Source of the DNA: an uncultured bacterium
GTDB taxonomy: Bacteria; Patescibacteriota; JABMPQ01; CAVVCK01
NCBI GenBank assembly: GCA_963746775.1
Contig: CAVVCK010000001.1
Coordinates: 147,050 to 211,049 of the forward strand
Length of the DNA stretch: 64,000 nt
Direction: 5' to 3'
The notes beneath the pieces were generated by a model, which worked only from the letters and a program-made list of their open reading frames with translations, ran no database searches and was not told the origin of the DNA. Below, in pieces: positions 11,251-64,000 of the stretch (the first letter of the stretch is position 1; every line of letters begins with the position of its first letter). Made by a program: the position numbers and the translations under genes.

Positions 11251-13194
11251 TTATTTCTTATTATTAAAATACCATTTTAAAATTTCATTAGCTATGGGAG
11301 CTGCTACTTCATTTCCTTCTCCACCTTCTTCTACTAACACCACCAAAACTATCTCCGGATCTTCGAAGGGAGCGTAAGCAGTATACCAGGCATGAGTTTG
11401 GTCACTTCCTCCATGTTGAGCTGTACCAGTTTTACCCGCAGAACTAACAGGTAAATCAGATAATAACCTACCAGAACCAGATAGCACCGTTTCTCTCATT
11501 GCCCTTTGAACCTGATTTATATATTTATTATCAATAAAATTTTCACGAATAACATTTTTCTTATTTTCAAAGATAACATTTTTATCCTGGTCAATACCTT
11601 CTTTCACAAGGTATGGCCTTAGAACTTGCCCACCGTTAGCTACAGTCGATGTCCATGATAAAACTTGCAGAGGTGTTGTTAATAAATCTCCTTGTCCGAT
11701 TGAAATATGATAAGTATCACCTAAATACCATTCTTCCCCTTTTACTTCTTGCTTCCAAGCAGGAGTAGGTATTAATCCTTCTGCTTCAGATGGTAAATCA
11801 ATACCCGTTTTTGCCCCCAGTCCAAATTTTCTAAAATACTGAATTATCTTATCAGCGCCTAGCCCCTTAAAATCCTCATAACCTCCACCTACATAATAAA
11901 AATAAATATCAGACGACTTTGCTATAGCAGAATATACATTCATGGGGCCGAGGCCAGATTTTTCCCAACCCACAAAATGATAAACCGTACTGGCATCATA
12001 CATATTAGTTACATCTATAGAACCATTATCTGTTATAGTAGTATTTTCATTAATAACACCTTCCTGAAGTCCAGCAGAAGCCATAACAGGCTTAATTGTA
12101 GAACCTGGTGGATAAATACCATTAACAGCTCTATTGTACAAAGGTTTATCTGGATCATTTAAAAATTTGTTATAATCTTCTAATTTTATTCCTTTTGAAA
12201 AAAGATTATCATCATATGAAGGAATATTGACGAAACTTAATATTTCACCAGTTTTAGGATTCATAGCAATGCATACTCCCTTTTTAGCTTTTGCTTTATT
12301 TAAACCTTCTTCCAAAAGCCTTCTTGATTCAAGCTGTAAATCTTTATCAATTGTTAAAATTAAATCTTGTCCTTCAGCTGCATCTTCTTTAGCAACAGTT
12401 TTTCTAACATTACCAACAGAATCAACTTCAACTTGTTTTTTACCTTTTGTCCCTTTTAGATTATTTTCATATTTTTTCTCTACCCCTTCTTTGCCTATAT
12501 AATCAATAGCTTGATAATCATTATTAGATTCTTCTAATTCTTCCTGACTTATTTTCCCTATATAACCCAAAATATGTGCAAATTCTTCTGGATATAGATA
12601 ATCACGAATTGGATTTTTCTCAATTTTTATACCTATGAAATTATCAAGTTTTGCTTCCATAATCAAAGCTTCATCTCTTACTAAATTTTTTTTCACTAAA
12701 ACAGGCTCATAAGAATCATTGTTAGTTTCATTTAAAAAAATATCTTTCTCTTCATCATCCAAACTAATTATTTTATTTATATCATTTAACATATTACTTT
12801 TCCCTTCAAAATTTTTTGGTAAATCTGCTGGAATAACTACTAGATCGAAAGCTGGAATATTCTTGACCAATAAATTGTTATTTCTATCATAAATAACTCC
12901 TCGCGGAGCACTTAAATTATATATTCTATAACGATTTTCTTCAGCCGCAGATCTTAAATTATCACCTGACATGATCTGTAAATAGAATACCCTACTCCAA
13001 ACTATTGTAAAAATAATGAAGATAACAAAATAAACCCACTTAAATTTTTTATAATCAAAGAGTGGTTTTACTGTTCTAGGCCTAAAGGGACCAGAATCTA
13101 CTAGAGTTTCTTCCCATTCGTATCCTTCGTTCCCTTTTTTATTCTTTTTTTCAATATGACCTATTTCCGGAATTATAAAAGGATTTTTCTCCAT
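11251..13194 (-). CDS. mrdA: Penicillin-binding protein 2 (class B transpeptidase)
   Basis: N-terminal membrane anchor. Transpeptidase motifs STIKP (SxxK), SSD (SxN-like) and KTGTA. Located downstream of mreBCD. Confidence 0.85.
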   Translation of the reverse strand: MEKNPFIIPEIGHIEKKNKKGNEGYEWEETLVDSGPFRPRTVKPLFDYKKFKWVYFVIFIIFTIVWSRVFYLQIMSGDNLRSAAEENRYRIYNLSAPRGVIYDRNNNLLVKNIPAFDLVVIPADLPKNFEGKSNMLNDINKIISLDDEEKDIFLNETNNDSYEPVLVKKNLVRDEALIMEAKLDNFIGIKIEKNPIRDYLYPEEFAHILGYIGKISQEELEESNNDYQAIDYIGKEGVEKKYENNLKGTKGKKQVEVDSVGNVRKTVAKEDAAEGQDLILTIDKDLQLESRRLLEEGLNKAKAKKGVCIAMNPKTGEILSFVNIPSYDDNLFSKGIKLEDYNKFLNDPDKPLYNRAVNGIYPPGSTIKPVMASAGLQEGVINENTTITDNGSIDVTNMYDASTVYHFVGWEKSGLGPMNVYSAIAKSSDIYFYYVGGGYEDFKGLGADKIIQYFRKFGLGAKTGIDLPSEAEGLIPTPAWKQEVKGEEWYLGDTYHISIGQGDLLTTPLQVLSWTSTVANGGQVLRPYLVKEGIDQDKNVIFENKKNVIRENFIDNKYINQVQRAMRETVLSGSGRLLSDLPVSSAGKTGTAQHGGSDQTHAWYTAYAPFEDPEIVLVVLVEEGGEGNEVAAPIANEILKWYFNNKK

Positions 13195-24417: not shown

Positions 24418-26244
24418 ATGTGTGGAATAATTGGATATATAGGTAATAAAGAAGCTTTGCCAATCTTAATTCAAGGCTTAAAAAGGTTAGAATATCGTGG
24501 ATATGATAGTGCCGGCGTAGCAATAATAAATAATGGTAAAATAAAAAGATTAAGATCGGTTGGAAAAATCGATAAATTAGTAGAAAAAATTAAAAAACAA
24601 GATTTTCCTGGTAGTATTGGTATTGCTCATACTCGTTGGGCAACTCATGGTGGTGTAACTGAAGCCAACGCCCATCCTCATGTGTCTTGCAATGGTAAAA
24701 TTTCCTTAGTACATAATGGAATTATTGAAAATTATCAGGAAATAAAAGATAAATTAAAGAAAAAACATATTTTTTCTTCTACTACTGATACGGAAGTATT
24801 AGCACATTTAATAGAAGAAAATTATGAAAATAATTTACAAAAGGCTGTAGAAAAATCTCTATTAAAAGTTAGAGGTACTTATGGTATCGCTGTTATTTCG
24901 AATGACGAACCAGATAAAATAGTTGTTGCCCGTTTAGGCAGCCCTATTGTAATTGGCATAGGACAAAATGAATACTTTTTTGCCAGCGATCCCACTCCCA
25001 TGTTACCCTATGCTAAAAATTTCATATTTTTAAAAGATGGCGAATTAGCAGTTATAAGCCAAGATAAGATTAAAATAATTAGTATAAAAAGAGGTATAGA
25101 AATAAAAAAGAAAATCGAAATGATTGACTGGAGTGAAGCACAAGCACAGAAACAAGGCTACACCCATTTTATGTTGAAAGAAATATCAGAACAATCAGAT
25201 GTTCTTCAAGATGCTATTAGAGGTAGGTATAACATAAAAGAAGGTACTGCTCATCTGGGAGGATTAAATATGACTGAAAAAGAAATGCAAGATATAAATA
25301 AGATTTTTTTTATCGCCTGCGGAACTGCTTCCTATGCTGCCATGATTGGCAAATATGCCTTTGAAAGATTAGCGGGTATTTCAACTGAGGTAGATGTCTC
25401 TAGTGAGTTTCGCTATCGCGATCCAGTAATTGATAAACACACTCTAGTATTTGCCGTATCTCAGTCAGGAGAGACCCTAGATACTCTAGCAGCCCTGCGA
25501 GAAGCAAAAAGAAGAGGCGCTCAGGTACGAGGAATTGTGAACTCTATAGGATCAAGCATTGCCAGAGAAGCTGATGGTGGAACCTATATTCATGCCGGAC
25601 CAGAATTAGCTGTTGCTTCAACTAAAGCCTATACTAATATGCTGGCTATTATGATTCTATACGCCTTACAATTTGGACGCCTGCAAAGACTTTCTCTCGG
25701 CACCGGCAAAAAATTAATTAATGCATTATTAGAAATACCGGAAAAAATAGAACAGATACTTCAAACAAGTAATTCAATAAAAAAAATAGCAAAAAAATAT
25801 AGTAAATATCAAGGATTTTTATTTCTTGGCAGAGGTGTCAATTATCCTGTAGCTTTAGAAGGATCACATAAATTAAAAGAGGTATCATATATTCATAGCG
25901 AAGCTTACCCTGCCGGTGAAATGAAACATGGAGTTAATGCCCTATTATCTGAGAATTTCCCAGTTTTAGCTATTATGACCAAAAATCAACTATATGATAA
26001 AATGAGAAGCAATATTGAAGAAGTAAAAGTTCGCAAAAGTAAAATTATTATTTTAGCCAACACAGGAGATAAAAAAGCAGCAGCTCTAGCAAATGACATT
26101 ATTTATGTTCCGAAAACGATGGAACTATTAGAACCGCTTTTAAATACTATTCCCCTGCAACTATTTGCTTATCACATGGCCGTAATACTTAAAAAAGATG
26201 TTGATCGTCCTAGAAATTTAGCAAAAAGTGTTACTGTAGAATAA
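24418..26244 (+). CDS. glmS: Glutamine--fructose-6-phosphate aminotransferase
   Basis: MCGIIGYIG N-terminal nucleophile; two SIS domains; C-terminal ..DVDRPRNLAKSVTVE; 608 aa. Confidence 0.95.
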   Translation: MCGIIGYIGNKEALPILIQGLKRLEYRGYDSAGVAIINNGKIKRLRSVGKIDKLVEKIKKQDFPGSIGIAHTRWATHGGVTEANAHPHVSCNGKISLVHNGIIENYQEIKDKLKKKHIFSSTTDTEVLAHLIEENYENNLQKAVEKSLLKVRGTYGIAVISNDEPDKIVVARLGSPIVIGIGQNEYFFASDPTPMLPYAKNFIFLKDGELAVISQDKIKIISIKRGIEIKKKIEMIDWSEAQAQKQGYTHFMLKEISEQSDVLQDAIRGRYNIKEGTAHLGGLNMTEKEMQDINKIFFIACGTASYAAMIGKYAFERLAGISTEVDVSSEFRYRDPVIDKHTLVFAVSQSGETLDTLAALREAKRRGAQVRGIVNSIGSSIAREADGGTYIHAGPELAVASTKAYTNMLAIMILYALQFGRLQRLSLGTGKKLINALLEIPEKIEQILQTSNSIKKIAKKYSKYQGFLFLGRGVNYPVALEGSHKLKEVSYIHSEAYPAGEMKHGVNALLSENFPVLAIMTKNQLYDKMRSNIEEVKVRKSKIIILANTGDKKAAALANDIIYVPKTMELLEPLLNTIPLQLFAYHMAVILKKDVDRPRNLAKSVTVE

Positions 26245-26257
26245 ATAAACTAACTCT

Positions 26258-27238
26258 ATGAAAAATATAACCTGCATTGGTGGAGCAGCTGGAATATCAA
26301 CAGTATTGTCAGGTTTAAAAAAAAGTAACCATCATTTATCAGCCATATTTCCAATCACGGATGATGGTGGATCAACCGGAAGACTAATAAAGGATTATGA
26401 CATTCTGCCAATGGGAGATTTAAGAAGACTGCTTGTAGCTTTATCGAGAAACAAGAGTATTATAAATAAAATGTTACTCTATAGATTCGATAGAGGAGAA
26501 TTGAAAGGACATGCCTTGGGCGCTATTATGCTTACTGCGCTAGCCCAAATATCCGGAAATATCGAAAATGCTACCGAAGAAATGAAAAAAATACTAAAGA
26601 TAAAACACGATATAATTCCCTCATCGAAACAAAAATCAATTCTCTGTGCTAAATTAGAAAATAATCAAATTATTAAGGGAGAAAACAATATAGATGAGGT
26701 AATAGGATTTGATGGAAATTTAAAAATAAAGGAACTATTTTTAAACCCTATTATAAAAATTAACCCCTCGGCTAAAAAAGCTATTATAAATTCAGACTTA
26801 ATTATTATAGGACCAGGAGACTTACACACAAGCGTATTACCCAATCTTTTGGTTTCTGGAATAGTTAAAGCTATAAATAAATCTGGAGCTAAAATAATTT
26901 ATATTTGTAATTTAATGACAAAATTTGGTCAAACAAATAATTTTTCAATTTCAGATTTTGTATCAGAAATTGAAAAATATTTAGGTAAAAATACGCTAGA
27001 TTACGTAATCTATAATAATCAAAAACCAAGCAATAAAATATTAAAACGTCATAAAATAAGAAAAAGTAAATTTGTTGAAATTGATAAAGAAAACTTTAAC
27101 AATAAATATACTTATTTATCTTCAAATTTGATTGAAAATAAATTATATAAAAACGATGCTGGTGATGCCTTACAAAGAAGCTTAATAAAACATGATCCCA
27201 AAAAATTATCCAAATTAATTCTTTCTTGCCTTAAATAA
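26258..27238 (+). CDS. YvcK/GlmR (CofD-like, UPF0052) family protein
   Basis: GGAAGISTVLSGLK...ITDDGGSTGRL signature of the YvcK/CofD family; 326 aa; immediately downstream of glmS. Confidence 0.8.
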   Translation: MKNITCIGGAAGISTVLSGLKKSNHHLSAIFPITDDGGSTGRLIKDYDILPMGDLRRLLVALSRNKSIINKMLLYRFDRGELKGHALGAIMLTALAQISGNIENATEEMKKILKIKHDIIPSSKQKSILCAKLENNQIIKGENNIDEVIGFDGNLKIKELFLNPIIKINPSAKKAIINSDLIIIGPGDLHTSVLPNLLVSGIVKAINKSGAKIIYICNLMTKFGQTNNFSISDFVSEIEKYLGKNTLDYVIYNNQKPSNKILKRHKIRKSKFVEIDKENFNNKYTYLSSNLIENKLYKNDAGDALQRSLIKHDPKKLSKLILSCLK

Positions 27239-27239
27239 A

Positions 27240-27869
27240 ATGAAAAATAATTTAATAGTTTTACTTGATTTTGATAGAACATTATTTGATACTGACAATT
27301 TTTTATTTGAAATAAAAAAAATCTTTAAAACAATTGGAATTAATGAAAATACGTTTATAAGCAGTTATAAAAAAGTCAAACCCTACAATATTAAAAAACA
27401 TTTAGATTTACTTAAATTAAACCGCCAAAATAAAAGTTTAATCCAAGCAAAATTAAATAAGTTAGCAGATAATTCAAAAAAATACTTATTCTCAGATACA
27501 ATTAAATTTTTAAAGTTTTTAAATAAAAATAATATAAAATGTATTTTAGTTACTTATGGAAACAAAGAATTCCAAAATAATAAAATAAAAAAAAGTAATA
27601 TTAAAATTTATTTAGACGATATTTACATAACTTCCAACAACCAAAATAAAATTAATATTTATAAAAATATTATTACTAAAAACAAAAATAAATCATTTAT
27701 TATAATAGATGATTTAAAAACAAATACTGAAAATGTTACAAAAAAAATTAATCATATGAACTCTATCAGAATAAATCGAAACAAAAATAATACCGAAATT
27801 AGCAATTTCGAAAAATATTACGAAGTTAAAAACTTAGATCAAGCAAAAAAAATAATCTCTCAATTATGA
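27240..27869 (+). CDS. HAD-superfamily hydrolase-like protein (N/K-rich)
   Basis: N-terminal LLDFDRTLFD (DxDxT motif I); 209 aa; highly low-complexity. Confidence 0.4.
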   Translation: MKNNLIVLLDFDRTLFDTDNFLFEIKKIFKTIGINENTFISSYKKVKPYNIKKHLDLLKLNRQNKSLIQAKLNKLADNSKKYLFSDTIKFLKFLNKNNIKCILVTYGNKEFQNNKIKKSNIKIYLDDIYITSNNQNKINIYKNIITKNKNKSFIIIDDLKTNTENVTKKINHMNSIRINRNKNNTEISNFEKYYEVKNLDQAKKIISQL

Positions 27870-29293
27870 AATTATGGAAAAGAAAAACATTGTTGATTTT
27901 AGCTTTTAGTCTTTTTTTTATTATTGCTCCTATTTTAGTTTTTTACGCTATGGGTTATCGTTATGATTTTAAAAATAAAATTTTCCGACAAATAGGAATG
28001 ATTATTTTAGAATCAAAACCTGATAGTGCCGATATCTATATAAATAATGACTATAACTCAAAGACTCCTTTTAGAATCAAAAATTTACTACCTAATGAAT
28101 ACTCTGTCAAAATAAGTAAAGATGGGTTTAATTCTTGGGAGAAAATATTGAATGTTGAATCAAAAAAAGTAACTTGGGCTTCGAATATAGTTTTGTTTTA
28201 CAAAGAGCCAGAAACCAAGGATTTATCAGATATTAAATTTAATAATTCTAGTATTTCTCCCAATTATAAAAAAATCATAGCCTCCTCAAATGATCAAGAG
28301 AATTATGGTTTGTGGCTTTTTGATTTAGATACAGGACAATCAAAAAATATATACCCTGGAAGTAATTCTGATTTAATCTCTCCTATATCCGAAAATGATT
28401 ATCGTAATTTAGAATATTCCAATTTTAAATGGTCACCAAACAGTAAAAAATTAATTTTATCAATAAAAAATAAAAAATCAGAAAATACATTAATCCTAGA
28501 TACAGATGAAAATATAAAGCCCATATATTTAAATGATACATACGATTTAATAACACAAGATGTACAATGGAAAAGCAATGAAGAAATATATCTTTTAGAT
28601 AACACTGGCAATATCCATCAGATTGAATTAAATTTAAAATACCCGCCAAAAATAATATTAAATCAAGCTGTTATTTTTCAATTTAATAAAGAAAATAATG
28701 AAATAATATATATATCAAGAGAAGAAAATGGATTTCAATTAATCAGTTATGTAGACAATGCAAAGAATAATATTTTAAATTTACCCAAAGATGAAAATTT
28801 TGAAATAGGAATGGGTATGTATAATAATTTAGCCCTGTTACTAAAAAACAAAAAGGAATTGCTTTTAATAGATACTATAACAAAAGAACCTAGGGTTATT
28901 GGAAATAACATTAATACTTTCAACTGGTCCAAGAGTAAAAATAAATTATTATACCTAGGAAAAAATGAATTATGGTTTTATGCCCTAAAAAAAGAAACTA
29001 CAGACCAAAGTACTTACCTTGCTTACAATTTTAATGAATCAAATTTATTAACAAGATATTCTACAGAAATAAAAAATGCCACTTGGTATTCAAATGAAGA
29101 ATATATAGCTCTATTACTAGAAGATAAAATGAAAATACTTGAATTAGATGGTAGGGAAAAAAGAAACAGCCAAGAATATAATAATAATCTTTTAAATAAA
29201 GACTATTCTATAGGATTCGACAAGAAAGGAGAAAACATTTACTTAATTAATAAAAATAATATCCTTCAAAAAGTAAAAATTACTGAATTTTAA
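27866..29293 (+). CDS. Membrane-anchored PEGA-domain / TolB-like beta-propeller protein
   Basis: N-terminal transmembrane helix; PEGA-like segment SKPDSADIYINNDYNSKTPFRIKNLLPNEYSVKISKDGF; WSPNSKKL-type propeller repeats. Confidence 0.5.
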   Translation: MKLWKRKTLLILAFSLFFIIAPILVFYAMGYRYDFKNKIFRQIGMIILESKPDSADIYINNDYNSKTPFRIKNLLPNEYSVKISKDGFNSWEKILNVESKKVTWASNIVLFYKEPETKDLSDIKFNNSSISPNYKKIIASSNDQENYGLWLFDLDTGQSKNIYPGSNSDLISPISENDYRNLEYSNFKWSPNSKKLILSIKNKKSENTLILDTDENIKPIYLNDTYDLITQDVQWKSNEEIYLLDNTGNIHQIELNLKYPPKIILNQAVIFQFNKENNEIIYISREENGFQLISYVDNAKNNILNLPKDENFEIGMGMYNNLALLLKNKKELLLIDTITKEPRVIGNNINTFNWSKSKNKLLYLGKNELWFYALKKETTDQSTYLAYNFNESNLLTRYSTEIKNATWYSNEEYIALLLEDKMKILELDGREKRNSQEYNNNLLNKDYSIGFDKKGENIYLINKNNILQKVKITEF

Positions 29294-53834: not shown

Positions 53835-53907
53835 TGGGATGTACAGGATTCGAACCTGTGACCTTCTGCTTAAAAGGCAGCTGCTCTACCAACTGAGCTA
53901 ACATCCC
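53835..53907 (-). tRNA. tRNA-Lys (anticodon UUU)
   Basis: Minus strand GGGATGTTAGCTCAGTTGGTAGAGCAGCTGCCTTTTAAGCAGAAGGTCACAGGTTCGAATCCTGTACATCCCA. 7-bp acceptor stem, D-arm GCTC/GAGC, anticodon loop CTTTTAA (U33, anticodon TTT, A37), T-loop TTCGAAT, 73 nt, CCA not encoded. Confidence 0.85.
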
Positions 53908-58874: not shown

Positions 58875-59615
58875 TTATAAATTAACTAAAAATATAAAGA
58901 CAAATCCACCACCAGCTAAAACTTTGACTAAATAATTAATCAGTGAAATGTTTCTGTCATACTTCATCCTTTTTGGTCCCACTAGCGCAATAAATCCTCT
59001 ATCATTGCCTTTTTTAAAATTAGATATAACCATAGAACAATTCTCCGCCTCGACCAAAGGATTTTCCTGACCAATATAAATCTGCACTTCCTTATCTCTT
59101 GCTACCTCTGATACCCTGTCTATATTATCATCTATAAAATCGCACAATGAAGCCACGCCACAAAAATCATTCGATCGGCTAAATTCCGGTTCTTTTAATA
59201 ATTCAGAAATGCCGCAATTATATATTTCTTTTTTCTTAATTATCGTCGAGATAGCTAGGCCTCCCGTTTCTGAAGCTAGAATTTTAGTAATAGTCTTCGT
59301 TGTCTCTCCATATCTATTTTTATACTCTACAATTTTCTTTTTTAAAATATATTCTTCCTGGCCTTCAATGTCTCTTTTCTTCATTAATCTATCAATATAA
59401 TAGCGATAACCTCTATCGGAAGGTATGCGGCCGGCGGATGTATGCGGCTGTTCTAAAAATCCTTCTTCTTCCAAATCTAGCATTTCGTTACGTAGCGTAG
59501 CTGTAGATAAATCAAATTTATGTTTTTTTTGTAAAATTGAAGAAGAAACAGGCGCTTTTCTGTCTATATAATCAGATATAATAGATTTTAAAATTTCCTC
59601 TTTTCTTTTATTCAT
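58875..59615 (-). CDS. hrcA: Heat-inducible transcription repressor HrcA (short form)
   Basis: N-terminal wHTH (RKEEILKSIISDYIDRKAPVSSSIL..TLRNEMLDLEEEGFLEQPHTSAGRIPSDRGYRYYID); 246 aa; CIRCE upstream. Confidence 0.85.
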   Translation of the reverse strand: MNKRKEEILKSIISDYIDRKAPVSSSILQKKHKFDLSTATLRNEMLDLEEEGFLEQPHTSAGRIPSDRGYRYYIDRLMKKRDIEGQEEYILKKKIVEYKNRYGETTKTITKILASETGGLAISTIIKKKEIYNCGISELLKEPEFSRSNDFCGVASLCDFIDDNIDRVSEVARDKEVQIYIGQENPLVEAENCSMVISNFKKGNDRGFIALVGPKRMKYDRNISLINYLVKVLAGGGFVFIFLVNL

Positions 59616-59703
59616 TTTTATGTTATCTTTTTAAGGATTAGCAAGTTTCAACTTGTACTCATATTCTAAGCGCGAACTAAAGTTCGCTAATCCTATAAAA
59701 TCA

Positions 59704-59730
59704 TTAGCACTCAACATATCCGAGTGCTAA
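59704..59730. promoter_or_regulatory. CIRCE operator (HrcA binding site)
   Basis: TTAGCACTC-aacatatcc-GAGTGCTAA, a perfect 9-N9-9 match to the CIRCE consensus; 89 nt upstream of hrcA. Confidence 0.9.
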
Positions 59731-59762
59731 TTTTATTTTATTATTTTAATAAATAGTGTCAA
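59731..59762 (-). promoter_or_regulatory. Candidate sigma-70 promoter for the hrcA-grpE-dnaK-dnaJ operon, directly upstream of CIRCE
   Basis: Minus strand: TTGACA (59762-59757), about 16-nt spacer, TAAAAT, then 4 nt, then CIRCE. Confidence 0.4.
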
Positions 59763-60056
59763 GGGAATTTATTTAAATTATATCAAAGTAAAGTGAATCT
59801 GCTAGATAAAAATTATCTATTTTTTGTTTATTTTTAGGCAAAATAACCATTTTAACTTGACATTTACCCCTAAATTATGCTTGACTTTTTTGTACGGTGT
59901 TTTACAGTATAAGTGAAAAGTTGTTTAGACTTTTATTTTGAAAGATGCATATATATTTCAATTTTAAATGAATTGAAATGTAGAATGTTCCTTCAAAACT
60001 TTTTTCTGAAACACAACAACAATTCCTCTTTTAAAAGAGGGGTAGGGAGATTTACT

Positions 60057-61400
60057 ATGGAACCCAAGGTTGGCGATATCATCAATAATAAGTATGAACT
60101 GATCAGGGAACTTGGCAGCGGAAGTATGGGAGTGGTATTCCTGGCCATCCACCAGCTCTTGAGGGCTCGTGTGGCCATCAAGTTCATCAATTCAGAGTTG
60201 GTACAGAATAAGGAGGCTAGGAGACGCTTCCTTTTGGAAGCACAAATCGGGGCAGAGATTAAACACCCCGGAGTAGTGTCTGTTTCAGACATCGAGGCAA
60301 ATGGGTACATCTTCATTGTGATGGAGTACCTCGAAGGCAGGGGTCTCGATAAAATTATTAATGAAAAAGGCTGTATTGTTGAAATTGAGTTTGCTATTGA
60401 TGTAACGATACAAATCCTGCGTGCACTCCTTGTGGTGCACGAAAAAGGGATTATCCATCGTGATCTCAAACCGGAAAACATCTTCATCACAGAAGGTGGT
60501 GAAGTCAAAATTATGGATTTCGGGATCGCCAAGGCTAGATCGGCAGCCCTCGCCACTACACATGAGCTGACCAGCGTTGGGACAATCAATGGGACCCCCC
60601 ATTATATGTCCCCGGAACAGTGCTGCGGTTCAAAGAGCATCAACCATCAAACCGATATCTGGTCGGTAGGCATCATGCTCTACGAGATGCTTACGGGGTG
60701 TTTCCCCTACATAGGGGACACTTCTAGCGATATTATAAATAGAATCCTTGACGGGGGAACCAATCCCCCTAAGGCTCTAAATCCGACTATTTCAGAAGGA
60801 CTCGAAAGAGTCATTCTGAAGGCAATGGAACCGGTACCGCAAAAACGGTACCAGAGTGCCAAGGAGTTCTTGGTCGACCTCGAGAGTCTTGAAGAACATC
60901 CTGCCTATACACCTCCTCCTCCGACGCCTACGACCACCGTACACGAGGCCGAAACGGTTATCGTGCAAAAGGTCGACGACTCAGAACCAAAAAAAAAGCA
61001 CTGGAGACTTCCTGTGACAATCGCTATCGCCGTTCTGATCATCGGTGCTTTCACGGGATGGTTCATCTCTCAACCTCAACCTTCTACTGAACCTCAAGTC
61101 ACTGATCCAACTCCAACGAAAGTTGTTGAATCTACACCCGTCGCTCAAGCTCAAGCTGAACCGGAACCACCCGCTCCGCCTGAGAAAGCTACACCTCCGC
61201 CTGAACCCGAACCTCAGCCAAGCGCCGAAGCAACAGCCGAACCCACCAAGCGCGCCCCACCTCCCCGACCAGCAAAGCAGGCCACTCCCGAGCCTCGCCG
61301 CCCTCACCCCACTGTCGAAGAGGAGCCACCACCCATCATAGTGGTTCCGCAAAGGCCACCTACTCCTCCCCCCATCATCGTTCTTTCTCAAAGAAGGTAG
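60057..61400 (+). CDS. Hanks-type Ser/Thr protein kinase with TM helix and Pro-rich C-terminal extracellular tail
   Basis: GSGSMGVV (Gly loop), VAIKFI (Lys), HRDLKPENIFI, DFGIAKA, GTPHYMSPE; TM WRLPVTIAIAVLIIGAFTGWFI; P/E/T-rich tail. Start taken at ATG 60057 (RBS aGAGGGGtaGGGAG) rather than the ORF-track ATG 59913, which adds 48 AT-rich codons. Confidence 0.85.
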   Translation: MEPKVGDIINNKYELIRELGSGSMGVVFLAIHQLLRARVAIKFINSELVQNKEARRRFLLEAQIGAEIKHPGVVSVSDIEANGYIFIVMEYLEGRGLDKIINEKGCIVEIEFAIDVTIQILRALLVVHEKGIIHRDLKPENIFITEGGEVKIMDFGIAKARSAALATTHELTSVGTINGTPHYMSPEQCCGSKSINHQTDIWSVGIMLYEMLTGCFPYIGDTSSDIINRILDGGTNPPKALNPTISEGLERVILKAMEPVPQKRYQSAKEFLVDLESLEEHPAYTPPPPTPTTTVHEAETVIVQKVDDSEPKKKHWRLPVTIAIAVLIIGAFTGWFISQPQPSTEPQVTDPTPTKVVESTPVAQAQAEPEPPAPPEKATPPPEPEPQPSAEATAEPTKRAPPPRPAKQATPEPRRPHPTVEEEPPPIIVVPQRPPTPPPIIVLSQRR

Positions 61401-61422
61401 ACTAGAGATCCTTCTAGTCTAC
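61397..61422. repeat. 9-bp perfect inverted repeat overlapping the kinase stop codon
   Basis: GTAGACTAG-agatcctt-CTAGTCTAC; not followed by a T-tract. Confidence 0.4.
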
Positions 61423-61497
61423 CAAACCCCTTCAATTACAACTTTAAATATACCCGCCTCTGACGGCGGACAGATAAAATTTACACAAACAAAAAAG

Positions 61498-61532
61498 AGA
61501 CTAAGCAAAATTACAGCTTAGTCTTTTTTTTA
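61498..61532. terminator. Rho-independent terminator between the convergent island genes
   Basis: aaaaaagAGACTAAG-caaaattacag-CTTAGTCT-TTTTTTTT. Confidence 0.6.
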
Positions 61533-61601
61533 TTCTTTTAAATTTTAATTATATATAGAAAGTAATAATAATAAAGGGAAGCCGTGTGTGCGAAAACGCG
61601 G

Positions 61602-62426
61602 CTAAAAGGTGAGAAAGAGCGGTGAGGCGATGGCGAGGGGCTCCCAGTTGGAGGAGGAGTCCTCGCCTTCGGCGTGGGGTGAAGCGCGAGCGCTTCTTCT
61701 TAACCGGTAGGTCTCAACTATCAGTAGGATTGCTCCCACTGCAGCAATACCTAACCCGATAAAGAAACTCGCATCGCCCAAGTCTTGTCGCCAAGACAAA
61801 TGCGACGGATCCTCCTGGAAGCGAACATATTCCGCGATCCAGGAAGGAATACCCACGCCCACCATCCCGGCAAGCCCGATTCCGAGAAGCCCCCACCCTG
61901 CAGGCCAAAAACGGGTATGAGAAGGTGGAGGAGTGGGGAGGTAGGGGGGAGTCCCACTAAACTGAACAGGAGGAGGAATGGGCTCCTCCTCTTCAACCGG
62001 CTCAGGAGAAGTTACGCACTCCTCCTCCAAAGCCTGGATACGTCCTTGGAGATATTCCCTTAAGAACATATCCTCTGCCACCACCCTCACAAGGTCCTCA
62101 GGAGAAAAACCCTCCAAAGCCTCTTGATAAAGAGGAATGGCTTCACACCTCCTTTCTTCCCCGGCCAGCTCCAAACAAGCCGCCTGGTACTGGCGAAGAG
62201 TGGCAAGATTATTCGCCTCACCATCCCCACAAATATCAGCTGCCTCTTGGAGCGACTGGAGGACCCCCTCGATCCTCGAAGGATCCCGACAGTCAACCGG
62301 CACCTGGCCGGCCAGTCGTCGAACCTCGCTCGAAGAACAAGGATTCCTTTCCTCCTCGGCCAAAATGGCCGAGGAATTAAAGAGAACAAAAATAACCGCG
62401 AAAATAACATGCGAAATACGTTCCAT
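61602..62426 (-). CDS. Secreted Cys-containing protein with Pro-rich linker and two C-terminal TM helices (hypothetical)
   Basis: Start taken at MERISHVIFAVIFVLFNSSAILA (signal peptide), which is preceded by AAGGAGGAAGGGACA. The ORF-track start at 62474 adds 16 aa without an RBS. Region with 5 or more Cys; PPVQFSGTPPYLPTPPPS linker; TM helices GWGLLGIGLAGMVGVGI and FFIGLGIAAVGAILLIV. Confidence 0.5.
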   Translation of the reverse strand: MERISHVIFAVIFVLFNSSAILAEEERNPCSSSEVRRLAGQVPVDCRDPSRIEGVLQSLQEAADICGDGEANNLATLRQYQAACLELAGEERRCEAIPLYQEALEGFSPEDLVRVVAEDMFLREYLQGRIQALEEECVTSPEPVEEEEPIPPPVQFSGTPPYLPTPPPSHTRFWPAGWGLLGIGLAGMVGVGIPSWIAEYVRFQEDPSHLSWRQDLGDASFFIGLGIAAVGAILLIVETYRLRRSARASPHAEGEDSSSNWEPLAIASPLFLTF

Positions 62427-62640
62427 TGTCCCTTCCTCCTTGAAATTAGGGCACAATTGCCCAAAAGGGATCAATTTATAATATATATAAATAGTGATTA
62501 TGTCAAGTTTTTTTGATTTTTATTGTTTATATGATCTTTATATATATATTTATTTATAAGAAAATAATAATTAGGTATTTATCCATATTTAGACTATAAA
62601 TACACCCTTTTTTTATAAAAAAATTTATAGAAATAAAAAT

Positions 62641-62661
62641 AGCCTGGAAATAATCCAGGCT
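62641..62661 (-). terminator. Rho-independent terminator downstream of groEL
   Basis: AGCCTGGA-aataa-TCCAGGCT flanked by A- and T-tracts. A second hairpin ACCCGC-caaagaa-GCGGGT lies at 62681-62699. Confidence 0.6.
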
Positions 62662-62728
62662 ATTTTATTATCAATGCCTACCCGCCAAAGAAGCGGGTTA
62701 TCAGCGTTTATTAGTATAACATCAACGC

Positions 62729-64000
62729 TTACATCATTCCCCCCATACCACCCATTCCAGGCATACCACCAGGCATTCCGGCAGGAGCATCACCTTTTTC
62801 TTCTGGCAAGTCAGTAACCACTGCCTCAGTAGTTAGGAACATAGAAGCAATAGAAGCCGCATTTTGCAGGGCTGATCTAGTTACCTTAGTAGGATCAATA
62901 ATTCCAGCTTCAACTAAATCTTCATATCTATCTTTATCAGCGTTATAACCTTCTCTTTGTTTTCTCTTTTTAACTTCAGCTAATATTACTGAACCCTCTC
63001 GTCCAGCGTTATGAGCTATTTGTCTTAATGGCTCTTCTAGCGCTCTTCTTAGAATATTAATACCAGTTTCTTCATCAGCATTAGTAGCTTTTACATCATC
63101 AAGAGCTGAAATAGCGCGAACAAGAGCTACACCACCACCAGGTACTATTCCTTCTTCAATAGCAGCCCGGGTAGCATTAAGTGCATCTTCAGTTCTGTGT
63201 TGTTTTTCTTTTTGCTCTGTCTCAGTGGCTGCTCCAACTTTGATTACGGCTACTCCGCCAGATAATTTAGCTAAACTTTCTTGTAATTTTTCTTTATCAA
63301 AATCGGAATCAGATAATTCAATTTCTTTCTTTATTTGGTCAACTCTCTCTTCGATTTTATTCTTCTTTCCTTTGCCATCGACTACAGTAGTATTTTCTTT
63401 AGAAGATACAATCTTTCTGGCTTGGCCTAACATATTAATTTCAGTATTTTCTAATTTTAAGCCAACTTCTTCAGAAATAACTTGTCCGCCAGTAACAATT
63501 GCTATATCATCTAGCATTTCTTTCTTACGATCACCAAAGCCAGGAGCTTTAATAGCTAGCGTATTAAAAGCGCCGCGCAATTTATTAACAATCAAAGTAG
63601 CTAGTGCTTCCCCTTCAATCTCATCAGCAATAATTACTAAATCTTTCTTGCCAGCTTGAGCTAATTTTTCTAATAAAGGCACAATATCGCTAACTGCCGA
63701 AATCTTTTTATCTGTAATTAAAATATAAGGATCATCGAATGAAGCTTCCATTCTCTCTGAATCAGTAATCATATAAGGAGTAATATAACCTTTATCAAAT
63801 TGCATACCCTCAACTACTTCTTTCTCTATACCAAAGATTTTTGACTCTTCCACAGTAATAACACCTTCATTGCCGACTTCTTCCATAACTTCAGCAATTA
63901 AATCACCGATTCTCTTATCTTTAGCAGAAATAGTAGCTACTTGTGATTTCTCTTCTTTATTAGAAACTTTCTTAGAAATTCTCTTTAGCTCACTAACTAC
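62729..64000 (-). CDS. groEL: Chaperonin GroEL, C-terminal approx. 420 aa (5' end beyond the window)
   Basis: ..[44 protein letters not shown].. with C-terminal [13 protein letters not shown]. The frame stays open to the window edge. Confidence 0.95.

Follow-up and report, generated by a model that had tools for sequence, protein, structure and literature searches.

The subject of this report is a pair of convergent GC-rich genes in a 64,000-nucleotide stretch of contig CAVVCK010000001.1 (hereafter the window), from an uncultured bacterium of the Patescibacteriota. The two genes together span positions 60057-62426, between two heat-shock operons. One encodes a Hanks-type Ser/Thr kinase of 447 amino acids (aa; 60057..61400, plus strand), and the other encodes a 274-aa surface or membrane protein (61602..62426, minus strand). 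The sharp departure of these genes from their surroundings in G+C content (GC), codon use and Shine-Dalgarno (SD) sequences is neither a misassembly nor the mark of a recent transfer. The kinase gene is older than the divergence of at least four lineages and has passed down them vertically under strong purifying selection, and the 274-aa gene belongs to a cassette that was inserted separately and later, in the window lineage only. On balance, we favor the view that the two genes are separate old acquisitions, by now functional residents, and that their GC at third codon positions (GC3) of about 0.5 represents half-finished amelioration of a GC-rich source.

Composition and SD sequences of the two genes

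Measured in 200-nt windows, GC is 0.24-0.29 over positions 59500-60000, 0.41-0.625 over 60000-62400 and 0.225-0.235 over 62400-62700, with a low of 0.325 in the intergenic spacer (61400-61600). Outside this segment, none of the 1-kb bins of the window exceeds a GC of 0.365. The kinase coding sequence (CDS) has an overall GC of 0.507 (0.59, 0.43 and 0.50 at the first, second and third codon positions, respectively) and the 274-aa CDS one of 0.549 (0.63, 0.47 and 0.545). Among the remaining 57 genes of the window, the mean GC3 is 0.200 (standard deviation (sd) 0.041, maximum 0.33). At synonymous positions the two genes thus lie approximately 7-8 sd from all others, and amino-acid content alone is therefore insufficient as an explanation. 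Base composition and codon use are atypical for the host in both genes (GC3 0.50 and 0.545 vs 0.20 ± 0.04).

The translation signals are equally distinct. An SD-like motif at positions -20 to -4 is found in three of the 58 genes of the window, these being the kinase gene, the 274-aa gene and one weak case. Native genes have runs of A or T as leaders, and 55 of 56 have no SD sequence at those positions; the neighboring genes in three related contigs (L001, L089 and L091) likewise lack one. A previous sequence-only reading of the window had described a high-G+C segment in AT-rich DNA, placed between the hrcA operon and groEL, with two SD-led genes among native genes that mostly have no SD, and with AT-rich flanks and an AT-rich spacer carrying hairpins. 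All of these descriptions agree with our measurements: the neighbors are hrcA-grpE-dnaK-dnaJ and groEL, GC is 0.225-0.29 in the flanks and 0.325 in the spacer, and hairpins are present at 61396-61423 and 61454-61466.

Descent of the kinase gene

A search of 5.8 billion proteins yielded three clear orthologs of the kinase, namely P0002 (68% identity) and P0004 and P0003 (50-51% by pairwise alignment). Their genes are located in L001 (a 1.05-Mb ENA contig), L003 and L004 (Logan contigs from other samples), respectively, and are divergent from hrcA, as in the window. In L001 and L003, the kinase gene lies between a divergent hrcA and a convergent groEL; in L004, it follows hrcA, after which the contig ends. 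The three orthologous islands have a GC of 0.44-0.58 in flanks of 0.17-0.36, and the GC3 of all four kinases is 0.48-0.52, that of the neighboring genes being 0.14-0.28.

HrcA and the kinase support the same grouping, (W,L001),(L003,L004), where W denotes the window. HrcA identity is 82-83% between W and L001, 93% between L003 and L004, and 77-81% across the two pairs; the corresponding values for the kinase are 68%, 66% and 50-52%. Between kinase pairs, synonymous sites are saturated (proportion of synonymous differences (pS) 0.69-0.81), nonsynonymous divergence (dN) is 0.14-0.46 and its ratio to synonymous divergence (dN/dS) is about 0.1. Given the shared locus, the congruent trees, the saturated pS and the low dN/dS, the kinase was therefore present before these lineages split, and has since descended vertically under purifying selection. 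The recent acquisition of the kinase proposed from the sequence alone is contradicted by these same-site orthologs of 50-68% identity, with their hrcA-like tree and pS of 0.69-0.81. Nor did close relatives provide the empty site that such an acquisition would have left: the kinase is there in L001, L003 and L004, and no empty hrcA-groEL site was found.

The distribution of the kinase at this site is narrow. L088, whose HrcA is the closest to that of the window (86% identity), nevertheless carries an AT-rich, unrelated 193-aa gene upstream of hrcA. HrcA identity falls to 43-48% in L089 and L090, where both the kinase and groEL are missing from beside hrcA. No kinase was found beside hrcA in any DnaK-matched Patescibacterial relative outside the small clade. 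A search of species-representative genome contigs with HrcA, first as a single protein and then as a four-sequence alignment, gave no relative; a search of JGI metagenome contigs with the kinase alignment gave no additional orthologs, the hits being generic Hanks kinases of 33-43% identity; and a search of IMG/VR gave no relative of the kinase.

Beyond the orthologs, the nearest kinases are at most 44% identical and reside on contigs with a GC of 0.28-0.73 (median 0.62), most of them high-GC, with GC3 values of up to 0.97. Three proteins that had appeared to be the nearest outgroup, P0005-P0007, were rejected as an artefact; they are tandem dual-kinase proteins with inflated scores. A foreign origin appears to be the most sensible source of the composition, judging from these sequence comparisons. 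This part of the sequence-only reading, a high-GC donor, is retained, given that the nearest non-orthologs are mostly on high-GC contigs; the recency attached to it is not.

A separate and later insertion of the 274-aa cassette

In the relatives with a complete locus, no gene lies between the kinase and groEL: the distance from the kinase stop codon to the groEL stop codon is 147 bp in L001 and 138 bp in L003. In the window, a cassette of about 1.18 kb (61450..62626, carrying its gene on the minus strand) is inserted in this kinase-groEL spacer, and homology to the 147-bp spacer of L001 sets its limits, as 61424-61449 matches one end of that spacer and 62627-62675 the other. The 274-aa cassette was thus inserted separately and later, in the window lineage only. 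The idea that the kinase and the Cys-rich protein arrived as one imported module does not survive this comparison, as L001 and L003 lack the 274-aa gene and the breakpoints define an insertion of its own.

Integrity of the assembly and alternative origins

Both ends of the GC-rich segment are reproduced elsewhere. L085, a 10.2-kb Logan contig from run ERR11571143, is 99.87% identical to window positions 60255-64000 (3746 nt) and has the gene order groES-groEL-274-aa gene-kinase, so covering the kinase, the spacer, the 274-aa gene and groEL. Three GroEL residues differ between L085 and the window; L085 therefore stems from another strain or population and is an assembly in its own right. Two JGI contigs, L086 and L087, span the 3' end of the kinase, the spacer, the 274-aa gene and the groEL flank at 95-96% identity to the window. 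On the other side, the hrcA-kinase junction, with its alignable AT-rich 5' region, is reproduced in L001, L003 and L004.

These contigs bear directly on the ways in which a GC-rich segment might come to lie in an AT-rich contig. That GC-rich reads of another organism were joined into the contig, which the sequence-only reading had offered as an alternative, draws its sole support from the abrupt compositional steps. With L085, L086 and L087 covering the 3' junctions and L001, L003 and L004 reproducing the 5' junction, we consider such a chimera exceedingly improbable: the junctions recur, with strain-level differences, in assemblies from different runs and projects, the same arrangement is present in a 1.05-Mb ENA contig and two Logan contigs, and the AT-rich promoter, 5' untranslated region (5' UTR) and terminators fit the GC-rich open reading frames (ORFs) exactly. 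Recent import of a single module of about 2.5 kb, comprising the kinase and the Cys-rich protein, from a high-GC donor would account for the atypical G+C, codon use and SD sequences of both genes and for the membrane or surface nature of both products, and insertion sequences are indeed active at the locus in relatives. It is nonetheless very unlikely. Kinase orthologs of 50-68% identity occupy the same locus in three other genomes, with dS saturated; the 274-aa gene is absent from two orthologous loci, with breakpoints inside the spacer; the spacer between the two genes is itself AT-rich (0.325); no integrase or transposase gene, tRNA gene or flanking direct repeat was found in window positions 59600-62760; the segment borders showed no repeats, direct or inverted, of the kind that marks a mobile element; and even the younger cassette predates a strain split with a pS of 0.11.

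It is similarly unlikely that the two genes are native and were never transferred, being GC-rich through the amino-acid needs of Pro-, Ala- and Gly-rich, low-complexity and transmembrane (TM) segments. GC at the first and second codon positions is indeed raised by the Gly-rich TM helices and by the Pro-rich tail and linker, and the share of G, A, R and P residues (GARP) is 0.36-0.41 for the kinase tail and 0.33 for the 274-aa protein. The effect, however, is synonymous: the two genes have a GC3 of 0.50-0.55 where the host has 0.20 ± 0.04, and GC at fourfold-degenerate sites (GC4) is about 0.5 at conserved residues. Moreover, the globular kinase domain by itself already has a GC of 0.43-0.52, Hanks kinases on low-GC contigs are AT-rich (L045, GC 0.27, GC3 0.17), and relatives just outside the clade have no kinase at hrcA.

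As to mobile elements in relatives, rve-family transposase genes (HTH_32/rve/rve_3) are inserted at the locus in L001 (7998-9643), L086 (461-1387) and L087 (335-1944), and these insertion sequences are AT-rich and native-like. The element of L001 sits between hrcA and the kinase. In the JGI strains L086 and L087, another lies between the groEL terminator and the 274-aa promoter (window positions ~62515-62555), accompanied by a duplicated copy (86% identical) of window positions 62511-62639.

Other GC-rich, SD-led genes in AT-rich genomes

The closest homolog of the 274-aa protein, P0244 (31% identity, E 8e-11), has in common with it the Cys pattern, a VQF...GW motif and an LLIV..RLRR end. Its gene is divergent from rpsL-rpsG and is present in two Logan contigs, L091:1307-2119 (SRR10555243) and L092:487-1299 (SRR10556092). 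Its GC and GC3 are both 0.57, compared with a GC3 of 0.21-0.24 for rpsL and rpsG and a GC of 0.23-0.24 for the intergenic DNA, and the layout of its 5' UTR is that of the window gene: GGGCnnnnnnGCCC, then AGGAGG, then ATG. In the gene that follows that of P0244, a stretch of DNA is 74-78% identical to Peptidase_S74 genes of L001, L003 and L085, which suggests that the host genomes are related.

A third such gene adjoins hrcA in L089 (198-1727; JGI 3300045950, Ga0484001_0014157), a contig whose HrcA is 46% identical to that of the window. It encodes 509 aa with a GC of 0.51 and a GC3 of 0.52 (neighbors 0.34-0.37), and has a strong SD, AGAGGAAGGAGAGAGG, its neighbors having none. The product is a secreted, Cys-rich protein with DNDCDG repeats (a faint MopE-type match) and a Laminin_G_3 domain.

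Persistence of the GC-rich composition

How these genes have remained GC-rich was approached with a two-state (GC/AT) model of third codon positions on the tree ((W,L001),(L003,L004)), with hrcA branch lengths and a host equilibrium GC3 of 0.23. If the kinase shares the equilibrium of its host and is still ameliorating, the root GC3 is 0.85-0.93, which matches the GC3 of high-GC kinase homologs (0.8-0.97), and this model is not rejected at conserved-residue sites (twice the log-likelihood difference (2dlnL) 2.8). Fits to the kinase only do not separate stationarity from amelioration (2dlnL 1.5-2.3). The amino-acid composition of the kinase domain is intermediate: GARP is 0.22-0.25 and the share of F, Y, M, I, N and K residues (FYMINK) is 0.28-0.31, compared with 0.29-0.35 and 0.20-0.23 in high-GC homologs and 0.19 and 0.38 in host proteins. 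Counted by parsimony, kinase singletons comprise 34 changes from GC to AT and 19 from AT to GC. The count was discarded as a test, for the hrcA control gave 45 vs 14 in the other direction, a bias of composition and saturation that makes it unreliable. The amelioration of compositionally atypical transferred genes is reportedly the model of Lawrence and Ochman. The present genes resemble classic transferred and ameliorating genes in that their G+C, codon use and translation signals are atypical against a strong opposite host bias, with insertion sequences active at the locus in relatives. They are unlike them in that the composition has outlasted synonymous saturation in four lineages and changes at the ORF ends, and flanking mobility genes, tRNA genes and direct repeats are missing in the window. 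Amelioration is placed first, narrowly, because it requires no new mechanism.

Several observations weigh against amelioration as the account of the present composition. A model in which the kinase has its own equilibrium, placed over all aligned codons at a GC3 of 0.48 with a root of 0.51, fits better, with a 2dlnL of 2.8 at conserved residues (p ~0.09), 3.2 over all codons (p ~0.07) and 5.0 over all codons with a free kinase rate (p ~0.025). Amelioration from a GC3 of about 0.9 requires that the transfer took place just before the last common ancestor, as any earlier date would need a GC3 above 1. The GC shift is bounded by the two ends of the CDS, and the 5' region, which is as old as the gene, is AT-rich in all four orthologs; the import must therefore have been almost exactly an ORF. 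No donor lineage was identified, outgroup kinases being all at most 44% identical, with no sister group found. Finally, the 274-aa protein and P0244, mutual closest relatives among 1.84 billion representatives, are encoded at different loci and have kept a GC3 of 0.55-0.57 and an SD.

The same origin and anatomy may accordingly be combined with another cause of persistence, which we regard as a serious possibility although the less probable one: GC3 of about 0.5 and the SD may be held by selection on the mRNA or on translation, e.g. for slow or conditional SD-dependent translation. In the own-equilibrium fit, the equilibrium GC3 (pe) is 0.43-0.48 and the root is about 0.5, i.e. stationary, at a gain in 2dlnL of 2.8-5.0, and the kinases have a GC3 of 0.48-0.52 in four lineages despite synonymous saturation. 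The restriction of the GC shift to the CDS, next to an AT-rich 5' region of equal age, points the same way, as do the conservation of the kinase SD in all four orthologs where 55 of 56 other genes have none, the GC3 of 0.55-0.57, SD and 5' UTR hairpin common to the 274-aa gene and that of P0244 (31% identity, different loci), and the GC-rich, SD-led secreted-protein gene beside hrcA in L089. However, the gain in fit is of marginal significance (p ~0.03-0.09), and the two-state model behind it is crude, with four taxa and no rate heterogeneity; the singleton excess of 34:19 toward AT and the intermediate amino-acid usage resemble drift to host composition; no known mechanism favors GC-ending codons over a whole ORF; and there is an ascertainment bias, as fully ameliorated imports would escape notice as GC islands. 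A broader version of this idea, put forward more tentatively still, is that the clade keeps a small class of GC-rich, sharp-bordered, SD-led genes, often with an anti-SD-like hairpin, for which a GC3 of about 0.5 is a selected equilibrium and the SD a separate, possibly conditional route to the ribosome. The class as conceived here would consist of membrane, surface or signaling proteins: the kinase, two loci of the tetratricopeptide repeat (TPR)-like/2TM family and, in L089, the Cys-rich MopE/laminin-G protein.

The kinase and its leader

The ATG of the kinase is at 60057, a small correction to the sequence-only reading. The Pkinase profile PF00069 matches aa 13-266 with 185.2 bits (cut-off 31.7; E 2e-54). 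Within the kinase domain (60093-60854), the catalytic motifs are complete and invariant in the four orthologs: the G-loop GSGSMG at aa 20 (60114), VAIK at aa 39 (60171), E61, HRDLKPEN at aa 134 (60456), DFG at aa 154 (60516) and SPE at aa 185 (60609). The domain is followed by a juxtamembrane region (60855-60998), a single TM helix (aa 316-340; 60999-61067) and a low-complexity tail of 110 aa, 32% of them Pro (61068-61397), which is scarcely alignable among the four orthologs. The transmembrane Hanks kinase with a Pro-rich tail anticipated by the sequence-only reading is therefore well founded. By its sequence, the kinase appears catalytically complete and PknB-like; its closest solved structures are those of S. 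aureus PknB/Stk1, S. pneumoniae StkP and M. tuberculosis PknB/PknA (E ~1e-47 to 1e-43).

Resemblance to the PASTA kinases PknB, Stk1, StkP and PrkC (NF033483; PDB 4eqm, 1mru, 9ruk) extends to the cytoplasmic kinase domain, the juxtamembrane linker and the single TM helix (E ~1e-47 over aa 5-290). The NCBIfam model NF033483 scores 301.8 bits, below its curated cut-off of 450, and covers profile positions 2-303 of 563. Unlike those kinases, the window kinase has neither PASTA repeats nor a folded ectodomain, but the 110-aa, 32% Pro tail, and no PP2C gene is adjacent to it. PASTA repeats (PF03793) gave no match in the window kinase, nor were any among the precomputed domains of P0002-P0004; a PP2C phosphatase gene is adjacent at none of the four loci, where the neighbors are hrcA and either the 274-aa gene or groEL. 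An architectural likeness may be seen in YabT of Bacillus subtilis (PMC3708118, PMC6333020), also a Hanks kinase with one TM helix on the C-terminal side and without a canonical receptor domain; with such an architecture, activation would therefore come from the cytoplasmic or juxtamembrane side. The likeness is one of architecture only. In YabT, the juxtamembrane motif is basic and binds DNA, and an outer tail is essentially lacking, whereas the juxtamembrane region of the window kinase is acidic and Pro/Thr-rich, with KKK before the TM helix, and its Pro-rich outer tail is long.

The AT-rich upstream region and 5' UTR of the kinase gene (59900..60056, plus strand) are conserved at all four loci, with a mean column identity of 64% in the four-way alignment. 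Just 5' of the SD, a CCUC...GAGG stem-loop (60022-60043) is predicted in all four kinase leaders, and the SD itself, GGGAG (60045-60049), lies in a block that is invariant or purine-rich in all four. Further upstream, nested inverted repeats, TTGAAAGATGCATATAT.TTTCAATT / AATTGAAAT...TTCCTTCAAAA (59936-59998), are shared with L001 and, in part, with L003 and L004. No known RNA or DNA motif matched them, and they could serve as an operator.

At the other end of the gene, a stem-loop, GGTAGACTAGA-GATCCT-TCTAGTCTACC (61396..61423, plus strand), overlaps the kinase stop codon and is followed by a C-rich stretch with no T-run. Hairpins at the kinase stop are also present in L001 (~11362-11397), L003 (~2497-2524) and L004 (~2648-2675), with stems that differ from one another (GTAGACTAGA, AGGCTAAATA and AGGCTAGATA); they were read by eye, since the automatic alignment mis-registers L001. 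The stem-loop is likely a 3' end-forming or stabilizing element.

The 274-aa protein and its cassette

The cassette begins, in the direction of transcription, with a sigma70-like promoter, TTGACA-17-TATTAT (62506->62478, minus strand, 11/12 matches), followed by a 5' UTR hairpin, GGGCACAATTGCCC (62449-62462), and the SD, AAGGAGGAAGGG (62430-62441). Beyond the gene lies a bidirectional terminator-like inverted repeat (61475..61547) with the core AGACTAAGC-N9-GCTTAGTCT, an A-run before it and a T-run after it, and 32-nt arms that are 84% complementary. The spacer hairpin at 61454-61466 is adjacent to it.

The protein comprises, in order, a signal-peptide-like N-terminus (62358-62426), a TPR-like helical ectodomain with six Cys (62007-62345), a Pro-rich linker (61917-62006), a Gly-rich TM1 (61839-61916), a loop (61782-61838), a Gly-rich TM2 (61713-61781) and a C-terminal tail (61605-61712), all on the minus strand. 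All six Cys fall within aa 30-137. With its signal-like segment, six Cys and two hydrophobic segments, it matches the secreted Cys-rich membrane protein previously described from the sequence. Compared with the JGI strains, the CDS has a pS of 0.11 and a ratio of nonsynonymous to synonymous differences (pN/pS) of 0.22, with 22 of 37 differences at third positions, and the reading frame is therefore real. Thirty-four of these 37 differences from L086/L087 fall within 185 nt, window positions 61667-61852 (CDS nt 575-760), corresponding to the loop and TM2, where divergence is 18% as against about 0.5% in the first 575 nt. This pattern resembles a patch of recombination or a segment under local diversification.

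The 274-aa protein has no match to a Pfam family at E <= 0.1 or to an NCBIfam family, TPR profiles included. Its ectodomain is predicted to adopt a helical-hairpin repeat fold of TPR-like form, an assignment weakened by its derivation from one single-sequence model with an overall predicted TM-score (pTM) of 0.46. Unlike TPR proteins such as kinesin light chain (5oj8), LpoP (6w5q) and BamD (8adg), it has no TPR profile match and six conserved Cys, and its domain is fused through the Pro-rich linker to two Gly-rich TM helices. When all 1.84 billion representatives were searched with HMMER, eight relatives were found, of which six (182-270 aa) have the same architecture, five being of 249-270 aa and one shorter and possibly truncated. 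On these sequence grounds, the protein appears to be a member of an uncharacterised TPR-like/2TM surface family.

Flanking operons and the rest of the window

The host assignment is in keeping with DnaK of the window, whose relatives at 74-79% identity are all labelled Patescibacteria, Parcubacteria or Paceibacteria, with a tighter clade at 82-91%. The hrcA-grpE-dnaK-dnaJ operon is preceded by a perfect CIRCE operator, TTAGCACTC-N9-GAGTGCTAA (59704..59730; one match with 0 mismatches, 0.03 expected), and upstream of it by a sigma70-like promoter (59762->59735, minus strand, 11/12 matches). This sole CIRCE of the window is on the hrcA side, about 150 bp upstream of a promoter-like site of the kinase at 59881-59908, and the scan of the window found no CIRCE between the kinase promoter and start codon that would make the kinase a member of the HrcA/CIRCE regulon. 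The single CIRCE serves hrcA and not the kinase. In some relatives, an HSP20 gene lies between grpE and dnaK (L088:2387-2824; L090:9434-9847); it is absent from the window and L001.

On the other side, native sequence resumes at the intrinsic terminator of groEL (62636..62666, minus strand), which is homologous to that of L001. The groEL gene is read leftward on the minus strand and extends from 62729 off the window end.

In a scan of the whole window against Rfam, tRNA was the only gathering-level match, and nothing credible was found in 59500-62800 at E <= 1. The tRNA gene (53835-53907, minus strand, 76 bits) is 96% identical to L001:2482-2556. Elsewhere, positions 27001-28000 are exceptionally AT-rich (GC 0.19) and include a gene, 27240-27869, with a GC of 0.175. 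The stretch is part of the one sizeable run of plus-strand genes (24418-29293); nearly all other genes of the window are on the minus strand, and GC skew is negative.

Discussion

The locus was probably assembled in two steps. A kinase gene would have entered the site beside hrcA before at least four lineages, now about 20% apart in HrcA, went separate ways. The kinase-groEL spacer later received the cassette of about 1.18 kb, which brought a promoter, a 5' UTR hairpin, an SD and terminators of its own. Horizontal gene transfer (HGT) into Patescibacteria is documented, and is mostly old and mostly within the phylum (PMC12455944). The GC-rich mRNAs presumably cannot use the unstructured AU-rich leaders of other genes, and would be initiated through their retained SD; GC-richness and the SD would therefore travel together, and the SD would be conserved. 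The CCUC...GAGG stem-loop of the kinase leader and the pairings in the TPR/2TM leaders may modulate initiation, as in both of the latter an upstream UCCC(U) can, by fold prediction, pair with the SD region. Individually, the 5' UTR hairpins are no more stable than shuffled sequences (z -0.4 to -2.6), and they are informative through their conservation only. A parallel may be drawn with SD-blind lineages of Bacteroidia that keep a single strong SD, e.g. in rpsU of Flavobacterium johnsoniae (PMC7797042, PMC13000453), where a near-SD-free genome has very few genes with a strong, conserved SD. There the likeness ends, since the SD-led genes here encode foreign-looking membrane proteins and not ribosomal ones; with no rRNA or rpsU gene identified in the window, the comparison is an analogy only.

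The kinase itself would be a membrane-tethered, sensor-less enzyme in the manner of YabT (PMC3708118), with a cytoplasmic catalytic domain and a short, disordered, Pro-rich outer tail. Most likely, it autophosphorylates conserved threonines of its activation loop and phosphorylates cytoplasmic substrates, among which HrcA, GroEL and DnaK are candidates by position only. The 274-aa protein may present to the outside a TPR-like binding domain with the capacity for disulfides, borne on a Pro-rich stalk and anchored by a Gly-rich helical hairpin. Composition, synteny, vertical descent, purifying selection, domain architecture and the separate insertion are shown by the data; the donor, the topology, the substrates and the reason for the persisting composition are what we infer from them. 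The locus joins known kinds of elements, namely foreign genes of old standing, PknB-like kinases without PASTA repeats and an uncharacterised TPR/2TM family.

A small Patescibacterial clade thus has a Hanks-type kinase wedged between its HrcA and GroESL operons, and the kinase and the 274-aa protein are plausible players in envelope or partner-cell signaling of an episymbiont. Calls of "recent HGT" or "contamination" based on composition in Patescibacterial metagenome-assembled genomes would wrongly flag or remove a conserved, selected gene of this kind. If it is true that selection holds a GC3 of about 0.5 and the SD in such genes, this would bear on amelioration itself and on how SD-independent lineages translate structured foreign mRNAs.

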